Below are positions 1-7,307 of a stretch of 7,307 bases of DNA, one piece after another. The stretch lies in IMG/VR virus record IMGVR_UViG_2619619129_000005. One strand, given 5' to 3'. Origin of the DNA: a virus (lineage: Duplodnaviria; Heunggongvirae; Uroviricota; Caudoviricetes). Every line of letters begins with the position of its first letter. Positions within the stretch are counted from its first letter, which is position 1. Both the position numbers and the translations under genes were made by a program. The notes beneath the pieces are model-generated. The model made no database searches. It had not been told where the DNA came from and saw only the letters and a program-made list of their open reading frames with translations.

Positions 1-158
1 ATCTTGTAACAATCAGGCATACCACGGAGCTTGTTTGCTTCAATCCGGGGTGACTCAAGTACTTCAACCAGCTTCTTTTTCAACTGTTCACGTACCGTCG
101 AGCCCAGCTTTCGCCATTCCTTTAGTGCCCGCTCGTCAAAATCCAGAAAATACGCCAT
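1..158 (-). CDS. relE: RelE mRNA-interferase toxin, N-terminal 52 codons only (gene runs off the window start)
   Basis: Reverse complement of 1..158 translates MAYFLDFDERALKEWRKLGSTVREQLKKKLVEVLESPRIEANKLRGMPDCYKI, which matches the RelE N-terminus as I recall it. ATG at 158..156 overlaps the relB stop by one base (TGATG). Absent from the ORF track because no stop lies inside the window. Confidence 0.9.
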   Translation of the reverse strand, partial: MAYFLDFDERALKEWRKLGSTVREQLKKKLVEVLESPRIEANKLRGMPDCYK

Positions 159-397
159 CAGAGTTCATCCAGCGTCACACGTACTGGCTTAGGATTACGA
201 AGCCGTTCTTTCACTATCTCCACAAGTTCAGCATCTTCATCACTCAGGAGTGTCTGTTTGAACGGCAAGCGTTCATTGTCAGCGATATACTCGAGCATGA
301 GACGAAGCGCTTCAGAAGGAGTTACGCCCATTTTTTCAAGCGCGGCGTAAGAACGCGCTTTAAGTTCATCGTCAATACGCAGGTTAATGCTACCCAT
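158..397 (-). CDS. relB: RelB antitoxin (ribbon-helix-helix)
   Basis: 79-aa ORF MGSINLRIDDELKARSYAALEKMGVTPSEALRLMLEYIADNERLPFKQTLLSDEDAELVEIVKERLRNPKPVRVTLDEL, recognised as RelB. ATG at 397..395 with GAGG Shine-Dalgarno (complement of 406..409) 8 nt upstream. Immediately precedes relE. Confidence 0.93.
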   Translation of the reverse strand: MGSINLRIDDELKARSYAALEKMGVTPSEALRLMLEYIADNERLPFKQTLLSDEDAELVEIVKERLRNPKPVRVTLDEL

Positions 398-408
398 GTC
401 TTACACCT

Positions 409-434
409 CTTGTAATTACAAATGTCATTACAAG
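409..434. promoter_or_regulatory. relO-like operator of the relBE promoter
   Basis: Perfect 12-bp palindrome TTGTAATTACAA (410..421) inside a larger inverted repeat CTTGTAAT (409..416) / ATTACAAG (427..434), just upstream of the relB start on the minus strand. Repeated TTGTAA/TTACAA hexads fit the known RelB/RelE autoregulation sites. Confidence 0.6.
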
Positions 435-744
435 TATCGCACTACAACATGCTTAGGGCAAGTCACAAAGGAAGTCAGAAAGTAGTCGTAAGAACGGTGA
501 TCACTGTCCGCTTTGTGCCAGGAACGGACGTTACTACTAGCTCAAGCAAACCGCTCCTTAGCCCTTAATGAAGAATGGAGGTATTGGTATAAATAGGTGA
601 ATATCGGAATATCTCCAACAGGGAAAGGGACGTTTTTAGGGGATAACTATATTATCACCTAGTGGCCGTAAGAATATGCGCAGAGAGAACATATTTCACA
701 ACAGCCACCTTAGTTTTATGAAAAATCATAAACCGTAGGAATAT

Positions 745-1065
745 TTAAACGCATTTAAACGTCAGGCGAGCAACGCCATTAACAAGTAAGTGTGTATCAA
801 TATCAGTTCTGACTTCTTTCATAGATTTATTTTGTACCCTACAGAAATCAGAAGCCTTTTTTGTTGCAGTGCCAATAGCGCCTCGTATACGACCTGCAGC
901 AGGAGCAGCTTCTACCTCAGAGAGGTAGTTCCCATTATCCAGTTTTTTGACATCGGACTGATATGTCAGACCCAGGCCTTGAAACTGTGTTTTATCATTT
1001 TGCACAGAGCAACCGCTTAGAAAAGTACCAATTAAAATGGTGGTGGCAATTACTAATGTTTTCAT
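745..1065 (-). CDS. Putative lipoprotein (106 aa)
   Basis: ORF begins MKTLVIATTILIGTFLSGC: hydrophobic signal peptide followed by lipobox L-S-G-C with the invariant Cys, then a hydrophilic mature domain. ATG at 1065..1063, TAA stop at 747..745. Flanking DNA (about 1080..1200) is AT-rich. Not recognised as a named gene. Confidence 0.7.
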   Translation of the reverse strand: MKTLVIATTILIGTFLSGCSVQNDKTQFQGLGLTYQSDVKKLDNGNYLSEVEAAPAAGRIRGAIGTATKKASDFCRVQNKSMKEVRTDIDTHLLVNGVARLTFKCV

Positions 1066-1354
1066 GTAAAGAACAATCCTTATGTATTTGGTTAGTCTCT
1101 ATTCTACAAACTGAAATACAACATAAATTAAACCAATTGCTATTTATAGATTTGCATACAGCTATCGTATTGAATATTTAGAGAAATAAATCACACTAAC
1201 CGAAAAACAAGAACGTCAGGTGATCTGTTCCATATGATTCAGAACACATCGATGTAAACATGGATCCCTAACTTCCGCTTCTTGCTCTTAGCGGACATTA
1301 GCATAGGCTATTTACCATAACGCCTCATTACGCGCACCGCCCAGACTGACTCAG

Positions 1355-1420
1355 CGCGTTTCTGGCATATCCCCGGTAAAACAAGTAACAAACCACCCGA
1401 AAATGAACACCAGAAACGCG
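1355..1420. repeat. 11-bp perfect inverted repeat CGCGTTTCTGG (1355..1365) / CCAGAAACGCG (1410..1420), 44-bp spacer
   Basis: Read directly from the sequence. Lies in the non-coding gap between the lipoprotein gene and the 1475..1885 ORF. Function unknown. Confidence 0.5.
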
Positions 1421-1474
1421 ACTTAAGAATCTACCCTATGAATGGATATGCACTCAACCGAATCGATCTTGGTT

Positions 1475-1885
1475 TCAATCTTTTTTATCGGGATCAGGCT
1501 TCTTTTTAGGTAACTTCGGGGGCTTAACTTGCTGATGACTTTGCGTTCGGCGCGTAAGCCAGGGATGGTCAGCTTTAGGTTTAACATAGTATTTTGAGCG
1601 TAAATCAATACGGGCATTATCCACTCGTTCATGGACACTCTTTTCATCATCCAGTGGTATAGGCTCCGGGCCATCAACATACTTTTCCCAGCCCAGCGCT
1701 TTCCCGTCATACAGAACGTTAATTTCACCGTCAAAGTTCTCGCATACAGTAACAACCGAATGCCTAAGTCGATATCCCCGGCCCTCACTGCGTACCTGAA
1801 ACGCACTGCTTTTGTACTGGAAAGTGAGATTTTTAGACAGAACGCGCTTCGCCTGTAGGCTGAAGATATAACCCAGTATTATCAA
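1475..1885 (-). CDS. Hypothetical ORF (136 aa) with no ATG; possible gene remnant
   Basis: The translation contains no methionine apart from the TTG-derived first residue (complement of 1883..1885). The middle section (GEINVLYDGKALGWEKYVDG) looks like a real protein; the C-terminus is a Lys/Pro-rich tail (KPPKLPKKKPDPDKKD). May be a C-terminal fragment of a disrupted gene. Confidence 0.3.
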   Translation of the reverse strand: MIILGYIFSLQAKRVLSKNLTFQYKSSAFQVRSEGRGYRLRHSVVTVCENFDGEINVLYDGKALGWEKYVDGPEPIPLDDEKSVHERVDNARIDLRSKYYVKPKADHPWLTRRTQSHQQVKPPKLPKKKPDPDKKD

Positions 1886-2036
1886 CGGCTCGGAAGTGTC
1901 TAGATTATCCGTGGCGATTCAATTTTGTATATCAGCAGACCTTTTCGCGTCGTGTATTCAGCATCATGCTCAAGGGCTTTTGCCAGTACCGCACATGGTT
2001 CTATCTGATTGCTATTAACCTGACATTTTGATTCGC

Positions 2037-2459
2037 TCACAGCATCACCTCCTGAAATTCCCCCTGATAAAACGCCAGCGCTCGCTGCATAACCTCACTC
2101 TTCCGGCACTCGCGACAGATTATGTTCTGACGCCTGTCGTAGCGGCGTATTTCTCCGTCAGGTAATGACCTGATAAGGTCCGGATCAACCACAGCCGTTT
2201 TCTTCACCTTTGCCCTTGAGAGTTTTTTGCGGGCGTTTTGCCAGTCCTTACGGGCCTGTTCAGACGGGAATAATCCGCAGCCGGAGTTGTATACATCGCC
2301 ACTGGCTACCAGTTCTCTGGCAAGAACGCTCATCAGATATCTTGTTGCCCCAGTTTTAGCTTCCAGTTGTCGTAACGTCTCGCGCCCACTCTGGCGTACG
2401 AGTTCAACAACCTGCCCTTTAATTTTTTCCCGCTCTTCTTGTGTAAAAACTTTTGCCAC
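2037..2459 (-). CDS. Hypothetical basic phage protein (140 aa), directly downstream of the replication gene
   Basis: ORF MAKVFTQEEREKIKGQVVELVRQSGRETLRQLEAKTGATRYLMSVLARELV..., GTG start at 2459..2457 with AGGAGG (complement of 2464..2469) upstream. Arg/Lys-rich, one CxxC (ICRECRK). No family assigned. Same strand as the replication gene with a 40-bp gap. Confidence 0.55.
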   Translation of the reverse strand: MAKVFTQEEREKIKGQVVELVRQSGRETLRQLEAKTGATRYLMSVLARELVASGDVYNSGCGLFPSEQARKDWQNARKKLSRAKVKKTAVVDPDLIRSLPDGEIRRYDRRQNIICRECRKSEVMQRALAFYQGEFQEVML

Positions 2460-2499
2460 AAGTCCTCCTGAAAATTACCTCATGACCAGAAATTAACAC

Positions 2500-3576
2500 T
2501 TACCCCCTGAAGCCCGGCGGAATTTCGTTATCCGGTTCAGAAATATGATTCACACAACGCTGGTTGTTCGTGCCGCTTACCGGGAGCAACCAGGGGTTCT
2601 CAAAATTCCGGTCCGGTCCAAAAAACGTCGTCGCTCGCTGAACAAATTCCGTTCCCGTTTTCCCGGTAGCCGCCAAGTATCTTGCGTAACGCCTCACGCC
2701 ATCCAGCATGGCTTCTGGTGGCACCCCCTCGCGTAATCTGGCCTTCCAGGCACTGAAAGCGGATTTCTTCGGGTTTGCTCCGGCACGCAACGGGTACTCC
2801 CGCCAGACCTGTTCGAACACATCCGGATAATCCACTCGTCCCACAGACTGCCCGGTGTTTTCCGGGACTACCCGATCGGCTTCCCGCTGAATGGCGGAAT
2901 CGGCTTCGGGCTGCTGCAGTTGGTGTGATTGCTCCGGCCTTGCGGTCATCACCTGCTGCACAGCGCCCGAATCGGCTTTCAGCGCATACGCTGAATCGGC
3001 TTCCGGTGTCGTGCCTGCTGGCTGACCAAGATTGACGGTCTGAACATCCCCTGCCTGGTTCGTGGCGTTTTTTACGCCATGGACCATAGTGTTTTGATCT
3101 TCTTGATCTGTATCTTTATCTGTATCTTTATCTGTCGTGACTCGTCGTGACATGTGCGTGACATTTCGTGACGCGCCGTGACAATCGCCATTTTGTTCCC
3201 GCTTTCTTTCCCTCTCTCGCTGCGCCCTCTTGCGCTCTGCAGGAGATTTTGCGGTTTGCGAAATATTGCCGTTGTCCTCTTTAAGCACCTGGCGTTTTTC
3301 CCATCCAGTGATTAAATCACCATCAAGTACCCGCCCCTGCATCGTCTGCAAAATTGAATCAATTACCTCTTCTGTCACGTCGAGCGCACTTGCCAAATCT
3401 TCTGTCGTGACATCAATGTGACCTCGCGTGACATTTCGTGACGCGCTCACCAGGAGGTGGATATACACTGCCATCACTGTTGCAATTGGCTGCCCTGACA
3501 CTCTGGCAATTGTTCGCCACTTAGGGTCATTTGGCATGTCATGCCATAATCTGAGCCAGGCGTTAGCCATACTCAC
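2500..3576 (-). CDS. Phage replication initiation / replisome-organizer protein (358 aa, lambda O-like role) with the origin inside its coding sequence
   Basis: ATG at 3576..3574 with GAGGTGA Shine-Dalgarno upstream. N-terminus MSMANAWLRLWHDMPNDPKWRTIARVSG is typical of phage initiator DNA-binding domains. A low-complexity acidic/basic linker (ERKRAQRERERKRE, DKDTDKDTD) is encoded by the tandem repeats and iterons. Sits where O-like genes sit, downstream of the cro/cII-like genes. Confidence 0.75.
   Translation of the reverse strand: MSMANAWLRLWHDMPNDPKWRTIARVSGQPIATVMAVYIHLLVSASRNVTRGHIDVTTEDLASALDVTEEVIDSILQTMQGRVLDGDLITGWEKRQVLKEDNGNISQTAKSPAERKRAQRERERKREQNGDCHGASRNVTHMSRRVTTDKDTDKDTDQEDQNTMVHGVKNATNQAGDVQTVNLGQPAGTTPEADSAYALKADSGAVQQVMTARPEQSHQLQQPEADSAIQREADRVVPENTGQSVGRVDYPDVFEQVWREYPLRAGANPKKSAFSAWKARLREGVPPEAMLDGVRRYARYLAATGKTGTEFVQRATTFFGPDRNFENPWLLPVSGTNNQRCVNHISEPDNEIPPGFRG
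3096..3182. repeat. Candidate origin, cluster 1: 12-bp tandem ATCTGTATCTTT x2.5 (3106..3135) followed by five CGTGAC iterons
   Basis: CGTGAC at 3136, 3146, 3157, 3167 and 3177, spaced 10-11 bp (one helical turn). Immediately preceded by an AT-rich hexamer-periodic tandem repeat. Lies inside the replication-initiator gene, as ori-lambda lies inside O. Confidence 0.6.
3374..3446. repeat. Candidate origin, cluster 2: four (C/T)GTGAC iterons plus one inverted copy
   Basis: CGTGAC at 3406, 3427 and 3437, TGTGAC at 3417, spaced 10-11 bp; inverted GTCACG at 3374..3379. The 21-mer GCGTGACATTTCGTGACGCGC is identical at 3426..3446 and 3156..3176. TCTGTCGTGAC is identical at 3131..3141 and 3401..3411. 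Confidence 0.6.
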
Positions 3577-3641
3577 CTCTTCTGATACCGAATCTTTTTA
3601 CTCACGAGTTGCCGGAAGCGATTCGATATGGCTATTGTCAG

Positions 3642-4067
3642 TCAATGTACTGCCACAGCATTTCCTGCCGGGCCACCACGGTTCATCTGATTGAAACCGG
3701 CGATTGCCACTGCGACAAAATCATCAGCGTCTCTCACCAGTCGCTCCCGCGTCTCCACCAGCTCCCGAAAATAAGCTGAACTGTGGCTGCGCATTCTGGC
3801 CACCAGCAAAGGTGGCATTGCCTTTTCGATCGCTGGTAACAACGCCTGAATTTTTTCAACTGCATCAGGGGTGTCTTTCTCTACCCAGCGGAAAATTTTC
3901 TGGGTATTGCGAGCCAGGGCTTCCGGATGGCTGTCGTCATACAGTTCCGGGAACGTCATTCCCAGCTCGAAATACGCTTTGGTAATTTTCGCAGCCGGTA
4001 CTTTTTCGCCGTCCGGATGCGCCCAGGCATTCATCGCCATGCGGATGTGTTCATGCTTGATTTTCAT
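3642..4067 (-). CDS. ydaT: YdaT-like protein (141 aa); family once proposed as a toxin, later reported to act as a CII-like regulator
   Basis: ORF MKIKHEHIRMAMNAWAHPDGEKVP... resembles Rac-prophage YdaT as I recall it; length and position (immediately after the Cro-like gene) match. Its ATG (4067..4065) overlaps the upstream gene stop (ATGA), indicating translational coupling. Confidence 0.65.
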   Translation of the reverse strand: MKIKHEHIRMAMNAWAHPDGEKVPAAKITKAYFELGMTFPELYDDSHPEALARNTQKIFRWVEKDTPDAVEKIQALLPAIEKAMPPLLVARMRSHSSAYFRELVETRERLVRDADDFVAVAIAGFNQMNRGGPAGNAVAVH

Positions 4068-4279
4068 GAATCATTCTTTCCTTCGTTCGAGGTGCTATCC
4101 TGCTTCTTGTAAAGTTCTGGGTTGTATTTCAATTCACCGTTAGTAATTTCATCCAGTTCCATTGCGCGAAGTTTGGGAATAACTGCTTTCCACCGCACAA
4201 CAGCCACATGTGAAATTCCAAGAGCCTCAGCTACTAGTCGCTTTTTTTTGAAATAGCGCAGAACATCATCTTTGAACAT
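4064..4279 (-). CDS. Cro-like HTH protein of the YdaS/DicC family (71 aa)
   Basis: ORF MFKDDVLRYFKKKRLVAEALGISHVAVVRWKAVIPKLRAMELDEITNGELKYNPELYKK... with HTH signature (LGISHVAVVRW). ATG at 4279..4277 with AGGAG (complement of 4286..4290) 6 nt upstream. Divergent from the repressor gene. Confidence 0.8.
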   Translation of the reverse strand: MFKDDVLRYFKKKRLVAEALGISHVAVVRWKAVIPKLRAMELDEITNGELKYNPELYKKQDSTSNEGKNDS

Positions 4280-4370
4280 AAAACTCTCCTGTTATTCCGA
4301 GCAGGAGGGTAACAATAGTTACATAGCAATGTCAACCATAGCAACATCACTTGGTAGTAACATTGGTTAC
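4280..4370. promoter_or_regulatory. Divergent OR-like region with two GTAAC-N4-GTTAC operator palindromes
   Basis: GTAAC-AATA-GTTAC at 4309..4322 and GTAAC-ATTG-GTTAC at 4357..4370, centres 48 bp apart. TTGACA on the minus strand (complement of 4330..4335) is a candidate -35 for the Cro-side promoter. The 91-bp gap between divergent start codons is typical of an immunity switch. Confidence 0.55.
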
Positions 4371-5045
4371 ATGAAAAACACTATCAGCGAACGTATTCGG
4401 AATCGTCGAAAAGACGTTGGATTAACCCAACAGCAGGTTGCGAAAGCAATCGGCATATCTCGTGTATCCGTAACAAAATGGGAAAATGGCTCTTCAAAAC
4501 CTGACGGTGAGAATTTGCATCTACTGTCAAAATTGCTTTCCAAATCTCCTGAATGGATTCTTTATGGAAAGGACGGTCACGATAAAACCGATGATCTGCG
4601 TCTGAATCAGTATCTTTACATTAGTGACAACATCGCCCGGTTGCCCGTTTTAACGTGGGAACAGGCTGGTTATTGGGATATGAGTTGTCCAGTAACCGAG
4701 ATTCCTGGCATTAAGAATTGGGTTGATGTCATGACAAAAACCGCTGAAAACTCTTTTTTATTGCATGTTGAGGGAGATGCGATGACAAACTCTAACGGCC
4801 TCCCAACCATCCCCGATGGATCTACCGTGCTGATCACACCATGCTCAAGTAACATTAGAGAACTGGTGGGAAAAATAATCTTAATCCAATTGGAAGGAAC
4901 GCCAAACGTAACACTAAAAAAAGTTGCGATTGACGGACCAAACATCTATCTGTTGTCACTGAATCCGCTTTACAAACCCATCGAACTGAATGGTGGTTAC
5001 ACCATTAAAGGTAAAGTTTCACAAATACATCAATACTTAGACTGA
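4371..5045 (+). CDS. dicA: Prophage repressor: DicA-like HTH N-domain plus LexA/CI-type S24 C-domain, with Ala at the catalytic Ser position
   Basis: N-terminus MKNTISERIRNRRKDVGLTQQQVAKAIGISRVSVTKWENG resembles DicA as I recall it. C-domain LLHVEGDAMTNSNG...TLKKVA...LNPLYKPIELNGGYTIKGKV aligns by eye with lambda CI (VEGNSMTAPTG...FKKL...LNPQYPMI...VVGKV). Start placed at ATG 4371 so both operators stay intergenic (leaderless, like lambda cI from PRM). Alternative starts: ATG 4329 and TTG 4272 (ORF-track start). The symbol is by family resemblance only; K-12 DicA is shorter and lacks the C-domain. Confidence 0.75.
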   Translation: MKNTISERIRNRRKDVGLTQQQVAKAIGISRVSVTKWENGSSKPDGENLHLLSKLLSKSPEWILYGKDGHDKTDDLRLNQYLYISDNIARLPVLTWEQAGYWDMSCPVTEIPGIKNWVDVMTKTAENSFLLHVEGDAMTNSNGLPTIPDGSTVLITPCSSNIRELVGKIILIQLEGTPNVTLKKVAIDGPNIYLLSLNPLYKPIELNGGYTIKGKVSQIHQYLD

Positions 5046-5050
5046 GTCAG

Positions 5051-5075
5051 AACCCGCATTCATTGCGGGTTTTTC
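5051..5075 (+). terminator. Rho-independent terminator after the repressor gene
   Basis: Stem AACCCGCA (5051..5058) / TGCGGGTT (5064..5071), 5-nt loop, followed by TTTTT (5070..5074). Starts 6 nt after the repressor stop (5043..5045). Confidence 0.7.
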
Positions 5076-5107
5076 ACGCTCTCAAATGTACCTTTTGCAA
5101 CATCGTA

Positions 5108-5136
5108 TTGACTCGAAAGGTAACTCTTGTTACCTT
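5108..5136 (+). promoter_or_regulatory. OL/PL-like promoter-operator for the rightward ydfA-dicB operon
   Basis: Perfect 20-bp palindrome AAGGTAAC-TCTT-GTTACCTT (5117..5136), sharing the GTAAC/GTTAC half-sites with the OR palindromes. TTGACT (5108..5113) is a candidate -35 and TACCTT (5131..5136, 17-bp spacer) a weak -10. Position after the repressor terminator mirrors lambda cI-tL-OL/PL. Confidence 0.55.
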
Positions 5137-5317
5137 AACGGCATGCCAACCCACCCCGCCCCACAGAATGCAGGGCAATACTTCGAGTTACCAGGCAGTG
5201 GTCAGGGGTTAAGTAGCCAGCCCGAGGCGTAAGAACATGACGGCAGGGTTCAACTTTAATAACTATGCAGCAGGTTTTTGTTCCGCTACCCCGGCGTTAA
5301 GGGGAAATGAGGTCAGC

Positions 5318-5473
5318 ATGGATACTATCGATCTTGGCAACAGCGAATCTCTGGTATGTGGCGTGTTCCCCAACCAGGACGGTACGTTCACCGCGATGAC
5401 GTATACCAAAAGCAAAACGTTTAAAACCGAAAATGGTGCCCGTCGCTGGCTGGAAAGAAACTCAGGTGAGTGA
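5318..5473 (+). CDS. ydfA: Small prophage protein (51 aa), YdfA/YdaF-like
   Basis: ATG 5318 with GAGGT (5309..5313) upstream; product MDTIDLGNSESLVCGVFPNQDGTFTAMTYTKSKTFKTENGARRWLERNSGE. Size and position (first gene after the OL-like operator) match K-12 ydfA. The ORF-track version starts earlier at 5237 (78 aa), an alternative. Symbol is by size and synteny, not verified by alignment. Confidence 0.6.
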   Translation: MDTIDLGNSESLVCGVFPNQDGTFTAMTYTKSKTFKTENGARRWLERNSGE

Positions 5474-5474
5474 T

Positions 5475-5603
5475 ATGGATTTTGACACAATCATGGAAAA
5501 GGCTTACGAAGAATACTTCGAAGGCCTTGCCGAAGGCGAAGAAGCTCACAGCTTCAACGAATTTAAACAGGTGCTTTCCAGTTCGGCAAAATCTAACGGC
5601 TGA
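5475..5603 (+). CDS. ydfB: Small acidic prophage protein (42 aa), YdfB/YdaG-like
   Basis: ATG 5475 one base after the preceding stop (TGATATG) with AGGTGAG Shine-Dalgarno; product MDFDTIMEKAYEEYFEGLAEGEEAHSFNEFKQVLSSSAKSNG; stop TGA 5601..5603. Below the ORF-track size cutoff. Symbol by size and synteny. Confidence 0.6.
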   Translation: MDFDTIMEKAYEEYFEGLAEGEEAHSFNEFKQVLSSSAKSNG

Positions 5604-5632
5604 TAAGCGAAACAGCACCGCGAGGAATCAGT

Positions 5633-5851
5633 ATGCAGAAACGAGAACCCGTCATCATCGCGCCAGACTATACCGATGATGAACTTTATGAGTGGATGCG
5701 CCAGAAAATTAATGCAGCGCAGGATCTGAAATGGGCTAATGAAGCCAGGGTTAAGCAGGCTGAAAATCTGTCCGCTCTGGAGCAGGATATCACCAATCTG
5801 GAAAAAGCAGCGGCATTAAGCATTGCCAGAATGATTACATACCCGCGTTAA
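5633..5851 (+). CDS. ydfC: Small prophage protein (72 aa), YdfC-like
   Basis: ATG 5633 with GAGGA 6-7 nt upstream; product MQKREPVIIAPDYTDDELYEWMRQKINAAQDLKWANEARVKQAENLSALEQDITNLEKAAALSIARMITYPR. Size and position match K-12 ydfC; symbol by synteny. Confidence 0.65.
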   Translation: MQKREPVIIAPDYTDDELYEWMRQKINAAQDLKWANEARVKQAENLSALEQDITNLEKAAALSIARMITYPR

Positions 5852-6192
5852 TAGATAACCAACGAAGCTAAGGTTGGTAATTAAGGAGTTCTCCACGGGT
5901 GAGGTGGAGTGCGTGCGCCGGACACGGGTGAGCATCCGGCACTGACAGTTTACTGAAAGGATATTTCCCTGAAAAGTCAGACCATAACGCGAAAGCGCAC
6001 GGCGAGGTAGCTGGTTCATAGATAGCCTGTCGTTAAATTTTCGTCGACCGTGCGCTTCCGGTTGTGGCAATCCGCGAAATGGCGCGGCGGTAAGTATGGC
6101 GGGGGTATTCCTTCCCCCGTTGAGGACACCGGGTTGTCAGGTTGACCATACGCTTAAGTGACAACCCCGCTGCAACGCCCTCTGTTATCAAT

Positions 6193-6250
6193 TTTCTGGT
6201 GACGTTTGGCGGTATCAGTTTTACTCCGTGACTGCTCTGCCGCCCTTTTT
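6193..6250 (+). ncRNA. dicF: DicF-like small RNA (about 53 nt) with intrinsic terminator
   Basis: TTTCTGGTGACGTTTGGCGGTATCAGTTTTACTCCGTGACTGCTCTGCCGCCC (6193..6245) followed by TTTTT (6246..6250). GGCGG (6209..6213) pairs with CCGCC (6240..6244). The sequence agrees with my recollection of K-12 DicF and sits in the long gap between ydfC and dicB. Exact 5' end is uncertain because it is made by processing. Confidence 0.6.
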
Positions 6251-6419
6251 AAAGTGAATTTTGTGATGCGGTGAATGCGGCTAAGCGCACGCGGAACAGT
6301 TAAAACCAAAAACAGTGTTATGGGTGGATTCTCTGTATCCGACGTTAATTGTTAACTGGTTAACGTCACCTGGAGGCACCAGGCACTGCATCACAAAATT
6401 CATTGTTGAGGACGCGATA

Positions 6420-6608
6420 ATGAAAACGTTATTACCAAACGTTAATACGTCTGAAGGTTGTTTTGAAATTGGTGTCACTATCAGTAACCCTGTATTTACT
6501 GAAGATGCCATTAACAAGAGAAAACAAGAACGGGAGCTATTAAATAAAATATGCATTGTTTCAATGCTGGCTCGTTTACGTCTAATGCCAAAAGGATGTG
6601 CACAATGA
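6420..6608 (+). CDS. dicB: Cell-division inhibitor DicB (62 aa)
   Basis: Product MKTLLPNVNTSEGCFEIGVTISNPVFTEDAINKRKQERELLNKICIVSMLARLRLMPKGCAQ matches DicB as I recall it. ATG 6420 with GAGGA (6408..6412) 7 nt upstream. The ORF-track version (from 6315) includes an unlikely 5' extension. Confidence 0.85.
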   Translation: MKTLLPNVNTSEGCFEIGVTISNPVFTEDAINKRKQERELLNKICIVSMLARLRLMPKGCAQ

Positions 6609-6796
6609 ATTCAGCATTTGCGCTTGTTCTGACAGTTTTTCTTGTTTCCGGAGTGTCAGTTGATATTGCAGTCAGTGTTCACAGGACAATGCAGGAGTGT
6701 ATGACTGCAGCAACCGAACAGAAAATTCCCGGTAACTGTTACCCGGTCGATAAAGTTATTCACCAGGATAATATCGAAATCCCGGCAGGTCTTTAA
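6605..6796 (+). CDS. ydfD: Small membrane protein YdfD-like (63 aa), reported lysis-type protein
   Basis: ATG 6605 overlaps the dicB stop (ATGA); product MNSAFALVLTVFLVSGVSVDIAVSVHRTMQECMTAATEQKIPGNCYPVDKVIHQDNIEIPAGL with an N-terminal hydrophobic helix. Size and position match K-12 ydfD. Confidence 0.75.
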   Translation: MNSAFALVLTVFLVSGVSVDIAVSVHRTMQECMTAATEQKIPGNCYPVDKVIHQDNIEIPAGL

Positions 6797-6889
6797 AACA
6801 GTTCCGTAATAAATATCCGGTTTCATTTTTATATGCCAGCAATGGCAGGGATTTGTTCATCCTTAAATCTGTCATGAGGTTAAAACAAA

Positions 6890-7307
6890 ATGAGTAAAGT
6901 CTTTATTTGCGCCGCTATTCCTGACGAACTGGCAACAAGGGAAGAAGGCGCTGTGGCTGTAGCCACAGCCATTGAAGCTGGCGACGAACGCCGTGCTCGA
7001 GCAAAATTTCACTGGCAATTCCTGGAACATTATCCGGCTGCTCAGGACTGCGCTTATAAATTTATTGTCTGCGAGGATAAACCTGGTATACCCCGCCCTG
7101 CCCTCGATTCATGGGATGCTGAATATATGCAGGAAAACCGCTGGGATGAGGATTCTGCTTCTTTTGTCCCGGTTGAGACTGAATCCGATCTGATGAACGT
7201 CACTTTTGACAAGCTGGCCCCTGAAGTACAGAACGCTGTCATGGTTAAGTTCGACACATGTGAAAACATCACCGTTGATATGGTTATTAGCGCACAGGAA
7301 TTGTTGC
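6890..7307 (+). CDS. ydfE: Acidic prophage early protein, N-terminal 139 codons (continues past window end), YdfE-like
   Basis: ATG 6890 with GAGGT 9 nt upstream; open frame to the window end: MSKVFICAAIPDELATREEGAVAVATAIEAGDERRARAKFHWQFLEHYPAAQDCAYKFIVCEDKPGIPRPALDSWDAEYMQENRWDEDSASFVPVETESDLMNVTFDKLAPEVQNAVMVKFDTCENITVDMVISAQELL. Absent from the ORF track because it has no stop in the window. Symbol by synteny only. Confidence 0.6.
   Translation, partial: MSKVFICAAIPDELATREEGAVAVATAIEAGDERRARAKFHWQFLEHYPAAQDCAYKFIVCEDKPGIPRPALDSWDAEYMQENRWDEDSASFVPVETESDLMNVTFDKLAPEVQNAVMVKFDTCENITVDMVISAQELL

Follow-up and report, generated by a model that had tools for sequence, protein, structure and literature searches.

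In Escherichia coli K-12, the Qin cryptic prophage holds an interval of 2.6 kb between relB and ydfA that contains ydfV, flxA, ydfW, ydfX, dicC, and dicA and is without replication genes. The dicA/dicC switch is functional and controls the dicBF operon, which is transcribed from a promoter resembling the leftward promoter (PL) of lambda (PMC10448788). The small RNA DicF represses ftsZ translation, while DicB blocks division via MinC (PMC5069750, PMC10448788), and the operon is known from several prophage contexts (PMC5069750). Prophages integrated at ompW (PPompW) are present in 44% of 767 complete E. coli genomes, have conserved early regions, and exchange DNA by recombination with prophages of the Qin locus, ydfJ (Nakamura et al. 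2021, PMC8112680). Here, we analyzed a stretch of 7,307 nucleotides of Caudoviricetes DNA (IMG/VR record IMGVR_UViG_2619619129_000005), referred to below as the window, which carries relBE at its left end and ydfABC-dicF-dicB-ydfDE at its right end and, in between, a CI-like repressor gene, cro, a YdaT-family gene, and a replication initiator gene. The window is very probably the immunity, replication, and leftward-operon (early) region of an ordinary lambda-like E. coli prophage at ompW, a mosaic cousin of Qin and not Qin itself.

The gene map was drawn up from the list of open reading frames (ORFs), Rfam, Pfam, PHROGs, NCBIfam, and direct translation, and public assemblies were found by look-up of the sequence of the window's lipoprotein. 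The entire window was recovered at 99.93% identity on a 4.97-Mb contig (GCA_900448095.1, L006) and at 99.77% identity in a second assembly (GCA_032704825.1, L005), and four further samples matched at 99.6 to 100% over the parts of the window that they share. In L005 and L006, the gene order is ompW, int, xis, ydfE (823 amino acids (aa)), ydfD, dicB and onward to CI, cro, ydaT, the initiator, DUF977, and ydfW, followed by the lipoprotein gene, relB, relE, hokD, DUF968, rusA, Q, a methylase gene, and lysis genes, with the terminase seen in L006. The element in these two assemblies is a full-size lambda-like prophage beside ompW. Since its integrase abuts ompW, and not the ydfJ/rspB site of Qin, the element does not sit at the Qin site; the window itself is without a chromosomal junction. 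The integrase and excisionase lie just outside the window in these source-like contigs, where an earlier note on this DNA, made from the letters alone, had advised looking for an integrase. Integration at ompW links L005, L006, and the prophage of E. coli LS4, which uses the same site, to the PPompW group. With PPompW and the phages Tritos, vB_EcoS-689R5, mEp460_ev081, and Evi, the window shares a backbone at 95 to 99% identity, consisting of the YdaT gene, the initiator, and DUF977 on one side and ydfABC-dicF-dicB-ydfD-exonuclease-xis-int on the opposite side; the O145:H28 PPompW records differ, as they match window positions 5633 to 7302 only. Mosaic lambdoid prophages of this kind are already known, and near-identical copies of the window exist in public assemblies.

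A blastn comparison with Qin of K-12 MG1655 returned three matching blocks, namely positions 1 to 536 (the 5' 158 nt of relE, relB, and the first ~38 codons of ydfV) at 98.7% identity, positions 1270 to 1659 (ydfW and the 3' end of ydfX) at 100%, and positions 5280 to 7307 (ydfA, ydfB, ydfC, dicF, dicB, ydfD, and the 5' part of ydfE) at 98.0%, while positions 537 to 1269 and 1660 to 5279 had no Qin counterpart. The Qin-type flanks that the earlier note had recognized from gene order are borne out by these matches. DicB is identical to the K-12 protein, YdfD differs at three residues, and the DicF match (76.7 against a gathering score of 48) covers model positions 1 to 52 of 52 at window positions 6194 to 6245. 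The interval from relB to ydfA is 4.9 kb in the window. The same note had called the K-12 interval short and degenerate; short it is, and degenerate only in part, as dicA and dicC work (PMC10448788).

In addition to the flanks with their ydfW scar of an insertion sequence (IS), the window and Qin have in common a repressor/cro pair placed to control a PL-like dicBF operon (PMC10448788). They differ in that the dicA/dicC pair is absent from the window, which has no DNA match to Qin over 1660 to 5279. The window repressor has an added S24 domain and is 54% identical to DicA in the helix-turn-helix (HTH) part, and the window Cro is 39% identical to DicC. A YdaT gene, the initiator, and DUF977 stand where K-12 has only the ydfX stump; a YegR-family gene takes the place of flxA; and the site is ompW instead of ydfJ/rspB. 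As CI and Cro have diverged from their homologues DicA and DicC, the window cassette is not the ancestor of Qin's.

The earlier note had pictured the middle as a separate core set between two Qin flanks. This has to be given up, as positions 2032 to 7307, which comprise the core and the right flank, form one contiguous block that is 98.3% identical in E. coli NT1F25 and 95 to 98% identical in dozens of genomes. The backbone also occurs in the deposited phages Tritos, vB_EcoS-689R5, Evi, and mEp460_ev081, each with another repressor cassette. In the L007 and L008 loci, which hold a prophage adjoining potC, window positions 1 to 4073 matched at 99.6% and 5142 to 7307 at 96.8%, with a different cro and a 139-aa repressor between them, and Tritos breaks at the same points (4073/4074 and 5141/5142). 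Since L007/L008 and Tritos match the window on either side of these two points and differ from it in between, the exchangeable unit is 4074 to 5141, which is smaller than the supposed core. The cassette ends on stretches shared with the Rac prophage: at the left, the 32 bp from 4044 to 4075, which cover an operator-like repeat and the cassette end and are 97% identical to the Rac ydaS/ydaT junction, and at the right, the leader at 5141 to 5305 (87%). Short conserved junctions are where lambdoid modules classically undergo homologous exchange. Further junctions lie at 5279/5280 relative to Qin and at 2562, within the final 20 codons of the initiator gene, relative to phage PhiR42_1. The cassette was found joined to three replication modules, those of the window, of LS4 (an HTH protein and a DnaC-like ATPase), and, in a diverged form, of E. 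coli O178:H19 (DUF1376 and P). Of 5,426 complete E. coli genomes, 702 carry it, whereas no copy was found among 50,697 phage records, even though these include phages with this backbone and other cassettes.

What K-12 Qin has lost is told more directly by PhiR42_1 (PV340562, from ECOR13), which is 99.94% identical to Qin up to position 17359 of the K-12 locus (L003) and 99.89% identical from 17358 on. Between these Qin-matching sides, PhiR42_1 holds 4,799 bp that are absent from K-12 (L013 6884-11682; K-12 L003 region 17175-17637), with the rest of the ISNCY transposase fragments, small ORFs, a methyltransferase, LygF/DUF977, O, and the 3' part of a cII-like gene. The K-12 gene ydfX is the 5' stump of this 173-aa YdaT/cII-like gene, and ydfW is the last 49 codons of the ISNCY transposase. 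The loss in K-12 Qin is a single deletion of 4,799 bp relative to PhiR42_1, which removed the replication genes. The window agrees with PhiR42_1 in gene order, in flanks of 98 to 100% identity, in DUF977 (93%), and in the ISNCY remnant; it differs in that PhiR42_1 has dicA/dicC immunity, the 173-aa cII-like gene, and a different O, and is 99.9% identical to Qin, unlike the window core. The window displays the general design that Qin once had, but the right template for a reconstruction is of the PhiR42_1 type.

The immunity region of the window has the lambdoid layout, with divergent repressor and cro genes, palindromes between them, and another palindrome at the leftward promoter; binding of the repressor to these operators is predicted. 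A search for GTAAC-N4-GTTAC returned eight matches with at most two mismatches, compared with 2.2 expected, and three of them were perfect (4309, 4357, and 5120). All three operator positions are conserved in L016 and in the O178:H19 locus (L017), whose cassette is 81% identical and whose third operator differs in the spacer only. A TTGACA hexamer between the two palindromes of the putative right operator (OR), on the complement of 4330 to 4335, would be the -35 element of the cro-ward promoter (PR). The two proposed promoters are alike, each having a TTGAC(A/T) -35 element, a spacing of 17 to 18 nt, TACC(C/T)T, and an operator over the spacer and the -10 element. The repressor aligns with lambda CI over its length (E=1e-13). 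As to its start, most homologues begin at the methionine of 4371, and an ATG at 4329 would put the second operator within the coding sequence. Distant CI homologues with longer N termini keep a "...NIGYMK" motif, which may reflect conservation of the operator and not of coding.

This organization resembles that of lambda and P22 in the divergent repressor and cro genes, the operators on both sides of the repressor gene, the HTH plus S24 repressor, the regulator in the CII position, and the initiator gene with iterons beside an A/T-rich tract. It departs from them in having three operators in total, and not three each at OR and the left operator (OL), and in that YdaT replaces CII, the gene for a P-type loader is missing, and the catalytic serine of the repressor is an alanine.

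This last substitution is the one unusual detail of a region that otherwise follows ordinary lambdoid logic. In the alignment with lambda CI, the position of the catalytic Ser149 is Ala (GDAM in the window, GNSM in lambda; codon GCG, 4779-4781), while the Ala-Gly cleavage site (EQAG|YW) and the lysine (TLKKV) are kept. Self-cleaving S24 repressors combine an Ala-Gly site with a Ser-Lys dyad, and the window CI falls short of this combination as the serine is replaced. This qualifies the earlier note's view of an intact core. Ser-to-Ala at the S24 nucleophile abolishes self-cleavage in LexA and lambda CI. We predict from the residue change that the window CI is a structural member of the S24 family that is catalytically inactive and, with Ala in place of the catalytic serine, unresponsive to RecA.

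The alanine allele is the common one in E. coli. Among 77 family representatives aligned at this position, 72 have Ser and four have Ala, and all four Ala proteins are at least 70% identical to the window protein. Spot checks showed Ala in L001, L002, L005, L006, L010, and L016, and Ser in L017 only, whose CI is 87.5% identical. When two 80-nt queries were run against the 5,426 genomes, the exact Ala version was found in 59 and the exact Ser version in none; the other 627 had further mismatches. The DicA antirepressor Rem, sought as a way round a non-cleavable CI, was found in none of L005, L006, L007, L001, and L002 (loci of ~20-35 kb, so that an antirepressor may lie elsewhere), which is a further difference from Qin. 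A literature search for natural Ser-to-Ala prophage repressors gave no relevant results, which is no proof of novelty.

We tentatively suggest, with the balance leaning somewhat against it, that the prevalent E. coli Ala allele of this CI-like repressor is a natural non-cleavable ("ind-") repressor. If so, about one in eight complete E. coli genomes would carry an SOS-blind lambdoid prophage, and the toxic dicF/dicB operon would be locked or freed by another signal, in convergence with DicA of K-12 Qin, in which the cleavage domain is absent altogether. It would also explain why the cassette is seen in 702 of the 5,426 genomes and in no phage record; that distribution fits poor inducibility without proving it. 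A prophage repressor that is very common in E. coli and lacks the catalytic serine is relevant to the question of when strains of this kind express DicF and DicB at all.

Directly after cro comes the gene for the YdaT-family protein, whose family has been treated as the equivalent of CII (PMC9986795, PMC8630535). The region 3642 to 4067 matches PHROG 163, "CII-like transcriptional activator", and the product is 33% identical to Rac YdaT, 37% to K-12 YdfX, and 100% to the Tritos protein. The inverted repeat at the cro/ydaT junction has one mismatch to TTGATTN6AATCAA (0.06 expected by chance), which is the footprinted YdaT site of CP-933P and lies at the equivalent position there (PMC9986795). 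The domain, the place directly after cro, and the operator-type repeat at the junction are all as in the YdaT family. These features fit a role of YdaT as a CII equivalent that would act on a promoter of the PRE (repression establishment) type.

Rac had been named in the earlier note as a possible model for the core together with lambda, and here the outcome was divided: the window does have a lambda-style region that K-12 Qin is without, but the Rac part of the description holds only for YdaT at 33%. As in Rac, a YdaT homologue follows the gene in the cro position, and short DNA stretches are shared at the cassette junctions and at ydaF/ydfA. Unlike Rac, the window is without similarity to RacR or YdaS and without a YdaV-type ATPase, and the likeness of its initiator to YdaU is confined to a tail of ~19 residues, so that of the Rac series racR-ydaS-ydaT-ydaU-ydaV only YdaT and the YdaU tail find a match. 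Rac was considered as the source of the core and rejected, as blastn returned four short stretches (32-170 bp) only and YdaT was the only protein match.

The replication initiator is 356 or 358 aa long, with ATG 3570 as the likely start (356 aa), and PHROG 3729 matched residues 1 to 356 of 356 (E=5e-258), whereas nothing rose above threshold in Pfam or NCBIfam. It is 99% identical to the replication protein of Tritos, and it shares only its last ~19 to 20 residues with PhiR42_1 O and Rac YdaU, with a weak match to the DnaT C terminus. The last 20 codons of the gene (2500-2562) form a mosaic joint at which otherwise unrelated initiators are alike, and this tail may be a conserved site of contact with a protein of the host or a downstream one. 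At the sequence level, the gene has the lambda-type combination of iterons beside an A/T-rich tract. We counted 11 copies of CGTGAC over the whole window, compared with 2.85 expected, and none of 200 shuffles reached 11. Cluster B has five copies at a spacing of 10 to 11 bp (3136-3182), and cluster A, 260 bp away, has three exact copies and one degenerate copy (3406-3442); the A/T-rich tract at 3092 to 3135, with a 12-mer present three times (3101-3135), lies directly beside cluster B. Since the copies stand in different reading frames within a cluster, the repetition of CGTGAC resides in the DNA and does not follow from a repeat in the protein. The domain matches and iterons agree with the earlier note, which had placed a CI-like repressor, a YdaT-like gene, and a replication gene with its origin in the middle of the window, the origin being a prediction.

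The interpretation that the earlier note had favored, that the window is a less decayed Qin whose core shows what K-12 Qin had and lost, draws on real resemblances. The flanks are 98 to 100% identical to Qin, the ydfW IS scar is 100% identical, and the order of repressor, cro, cII-like gene, initiator, and DUF977 is that of PhiR42_1, with DUF977 93% identical to LygF; moreover, a related CI-S24 cassette sits at the true Qin site adjoining rspB in L017. Yet the source-like contigs are at ompW, CI and Cro reach only 54% (HTH) and 39% identity to DicA and DicC, the initiator is unrelated to O of the Qin lineage except for 20 aa, and PhiR42_1 supplies the missing 4.8 kb, so that we consider this interpretation unlikely and largely refuted. 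The usefulness claimed for the window in reconstructing the loss passes to PhiR42_1 on the same grounds. A recent, unrelated insertion of the core into a Qin-like element, with IS elements as its vehicle or its borders, might be suspected from the ISNCY remnant (1270-1877) and the truncated gene (1900-2040) at the left edge of the core. As the remnant is common to K-12 Qin and PhiR42_1 at 100%, it is part of the Qin-type flank, older than the difference, and no mark of a core insertion. No IS, nor anything comparable, borders the core on the right; in many prophages and phages, core and right flank run on without a break; the limits of the swapped units are conserved phage junctions instead of IS ends; and a repeat search of 2400 to 5300 showed no inverted repeats or target-site duplications bracketing ~1878-5279. 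We therefore rejected this explanation, to which we give very little credence. Neither of the two outcomes that the earlier note had named as fatal to its own view, flanks foreign to Qin or a core bounded by IS elements, was seen, the IS remnant on the left being Qin's own ydfW fragment. E. coli genomes do hold several related prophages (a median of two matching places and up to 16), from which an assembly chimera of two prophages in one genome could arise; the same junctions recur at 99.6 to 100% in six independent assemblies and read sets, including the 4.97-Mb contig, which makes a chimera the most improbable of the three.

The reading of the window as the early region of an ordinary lambda-like prophage at ompW has its own difficulties. 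Published PPompWs are mostly defective (PMC8112680), and a search of 5,426 complete E. coli genomes did not recover, as one piece, the exact composite of the Klebsiella-like stretch and its junction. A consensus promoter scan called neither PR nor PL, and both -10 hexamers match at three of six positions only. The classical RecA-dependent induction step probably does not operate for a CI of the Ala type. By Pfam, the gene next to the initiator is DUF977 and not a P- or DnaC-type loader gene; as the C-terminal part of the initiator matches DnaD-like loader PHROGs, loading may be built in. The placing of the origin at 3092 to 3442 is a prediction from repeats.

On the reading of an ordinary lambda-like early region, we hypothesize the following working of the switch. 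The CI-like repressor would bind the three 14-bp GTAAC-N4-GTTAC palindromes. From the two OR palindromes between cI and cro, it would shut the promoter for cro, the YdaT gene, the initiator, and DUF977, and from the OL palindrome over the PL-like promoter, it would shut ydfA-ydfB-ydfC-dicF-dicB-ydfD-ydfE and, outside the window, xis and int. Loss of repression would allow Cro and YdaT to be made, and the operator-like repeat at the cro/ydaT junction would serve as the YdaT site, at a PRE-type promoter directed back toward cI. The initiator would bind the CGTGAC iterons inside its own gene, beside the A/T-rich tract, and the leftward transcript would yield DicF, with its block of ftsZ translation, and DicB, with its MinC-dependent block of division. 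The mosaic itself would have arisen by homologous exchange at short conserved junctions, with the cro-OR-cI-OL cassette (4074-5141) swapped as a unit between near-identical backbones and the replication module swapped independently; the flank on the relB side combines Qin's ISNCY scar (ydfW) with a small low-GC moron common to Klebsiella plasmids.

As first posed, the finding matters little, as dicBF behind different immunity regions has already been documented (PMC5069750, PMC8112680). Of use are the base-precise junction map, with its cassette of 1.07 kb bounded by the YdaT operator and the PL leader, and the account of the K-12 Qin loss, which explains ydfW and ydfX as stumps of a transposase gene and a cII-like gene.

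Table 1. Features of the window, with their positions, strands, and the evidence for each assignment. Promoter, operator, and origin entries are predictions.
Feature	Position	Strand	Evidence
relE, 52 of 95 codons (gene cut by the window edge)	1..158	-	Translation equals K-12 RelE residues 1-52
relB antitoxin, complete, 79 aa	158..397	-	Pfam RelB, E=1e-32, full length; Qin match
ydfV, truncated; Qin-like for the first ~34-38 codons, then foreign DNA and a stop	422..568	+	Comparison with the K-12 YdfV protein; Qin match stops at 536
Low-GC stretch replacing the 3' part of ydfV and flxA of Qin	506..1296		GC 36-40%; no Qin match
YegR-family lipoprotein-like gene (signal peptide and Cys), 106 aa, moron	745..1065	-	PHROG 21109, E=1.5e-19
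ISNCY (ISEsa1/IS1202-like) transposase gene remnant; ORF 1475-1885 is the C-terminal ~133 codons	1270..1877	-	PHROG 8463; NCBIfam ISNCY
46-codon gene stump, N-terminal half of PHROG 4030, cut at the IS-remnant junction	1900..2040	-	PHROG 4030 positions 2-41 of 85
DUF977/LygF/"Ren-like" gene, complete, 140 aa	2037..2459	-	Pfam DUF977, full length; PHROG 142; 93% to PhiR42_1 LygF
Replication initiator, replisome-organiser N terminus and DnaD-like C-terminal part	2500..3576	-	PHROG 3729 "replication initiation protein"
Origin-like region inside the initiator gene	3092..3442		Iterons and A/T-rich tract; function predicted
YdaT-family gene (CII equivalent), complete, 141 aa	3642..4067	-	Pfam YdaT_toxin, 39.6 bits (cut-off 21)
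Inverted repeat TTGATTTTCATGAATCAT resembling a YdaT operator, at the cro/ydaT junction and at the left end of the immunity cassette	4057..4074		1 mismatch
P22-Cro-like gene, 71 aa	4064..4279	-	Pfam P22_Cro; 39% to DicC; NCBIfam DicC subfamily below cut-off
Exchangeable immunity cassette (cro, OR, cI, terminator, OL/PL), 1.07 kb	4074..5141		Breakpoints relative to L007/L008 and Tritos
Putative OR, two perfect GTAAC-N4-GTTAC palindromes (4309-4322 and 4357-4370)	4309..4370		Motif search; role predicted
CI-like repressor, HTH and S24, 224 aa from ATG 4371 (annotators: 4329, 238 aa)	4371..5045	+	Pfam HTH_3 and Peptidase_S24
Intrinsic terminator behind cI	5049..5075	+	Hairpin AACCCGCA-TTCAT-TGCGGGTT and T-run, -18 kcal/mol in 45-nt context
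PL-like promoter TTGACT-17 nt-TACCTT, overlapped by the third perfect operator GTAACTCTTGTTAC (5120-5133)	5108..5136	+	Predicted from sequence
ydfA (5318-5473), ydfB (5475-5603), ydfC (5633-5851)	5318..5851	+	Translations nearly identical to K-12; DUF1391; PHROG 1744
dicF small RNA	6193..6245	+	Rfam RF00039, 76.7 bits, E=4e-16; identical to K-12 dicF
dicB (6420-6608), ydfD (6605-6796)	6420..6796	+	NCBIfam CellDivInhibDicB, 132.8 bits (cut-off 100); PHROG 1092
ydfE (exonuclease), initial 139 codons, without a stop before the window ends	6890..7307	+	Translation; 823 aa in L005/L006

Within the left flank, the low-GC stretch (506-1296) is 99.6 to 99.9% identical to large IncF plasmids of Klebsiella, mostly conjugative plasmids of Klebsiella pneumoniae. 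We found this stretch on 88 plasmids, 77 of them from Klebsiella and 86 matching at 99% or more, its extent being set by comparison with pDA12090.1; among the complete E. coli genomes, it occurred in one of 5,426 and lay on a plasmid there. The plasmid copy extends into Qin-type sequence by 31 bp (506-536) at one end and by 27 bp (1270-1296) at the other. With Qin-type ends on the plasmid copy, an origin in a prophage fits as well as a move from plasmid to prophage. The product of the gene at 745 to 1065 was without a match in the Pfam and NCBIfam scans, whereas PHROGs and a precomputed PF27694 record did match: an identical product carries the PF27694 YegR record, and the same protein is found on plasmids as WP_004197483.1. 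It is 48% identical to "putative protein YegR" of phage vB_EcoM-720R8.

The ISNCY remnant at 1270 to 1877 is 100% identical to PhiR42_1, and the ORF at 1475 to 1885 is 100% identical to residues 133 to 265 of the PhiR42_1 transposase, its final 49 codons being K-12 YdfW. Many genomes carry the ISNCY/ISEsa1 annotation for this remnant; in the window, a full-length ISNCY/ISEsa1 transposase gene is not present, only the C-terminal ~133 codons. Next to it, positions 1878 to 2031 gave no megablast match in complete E. coli genomes and are present in L005 to L010. The 46-codon PHROG 4030 stump (1900-2040) shows a deletion between the IS and DUF977.

Two side observations were made. In E. coli O178:H19 (L017, NZ_CP024289.1), a prophage occupies the true Qin site, with int adjoining rspB, and carries the Ser-containing CI relative (87.5%) with all three operators; its replication module is intact and of the YdaU/P type. 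Finally, tandem 12-mers lie in or just beyond the relB/ydfV intergenic region, with TGTAATTACAAA present twice and AAGTCACAAAGG present twice, at 411-433 and 460-482; the first of these repeats (411-433) is presumably the known relBE operator region.

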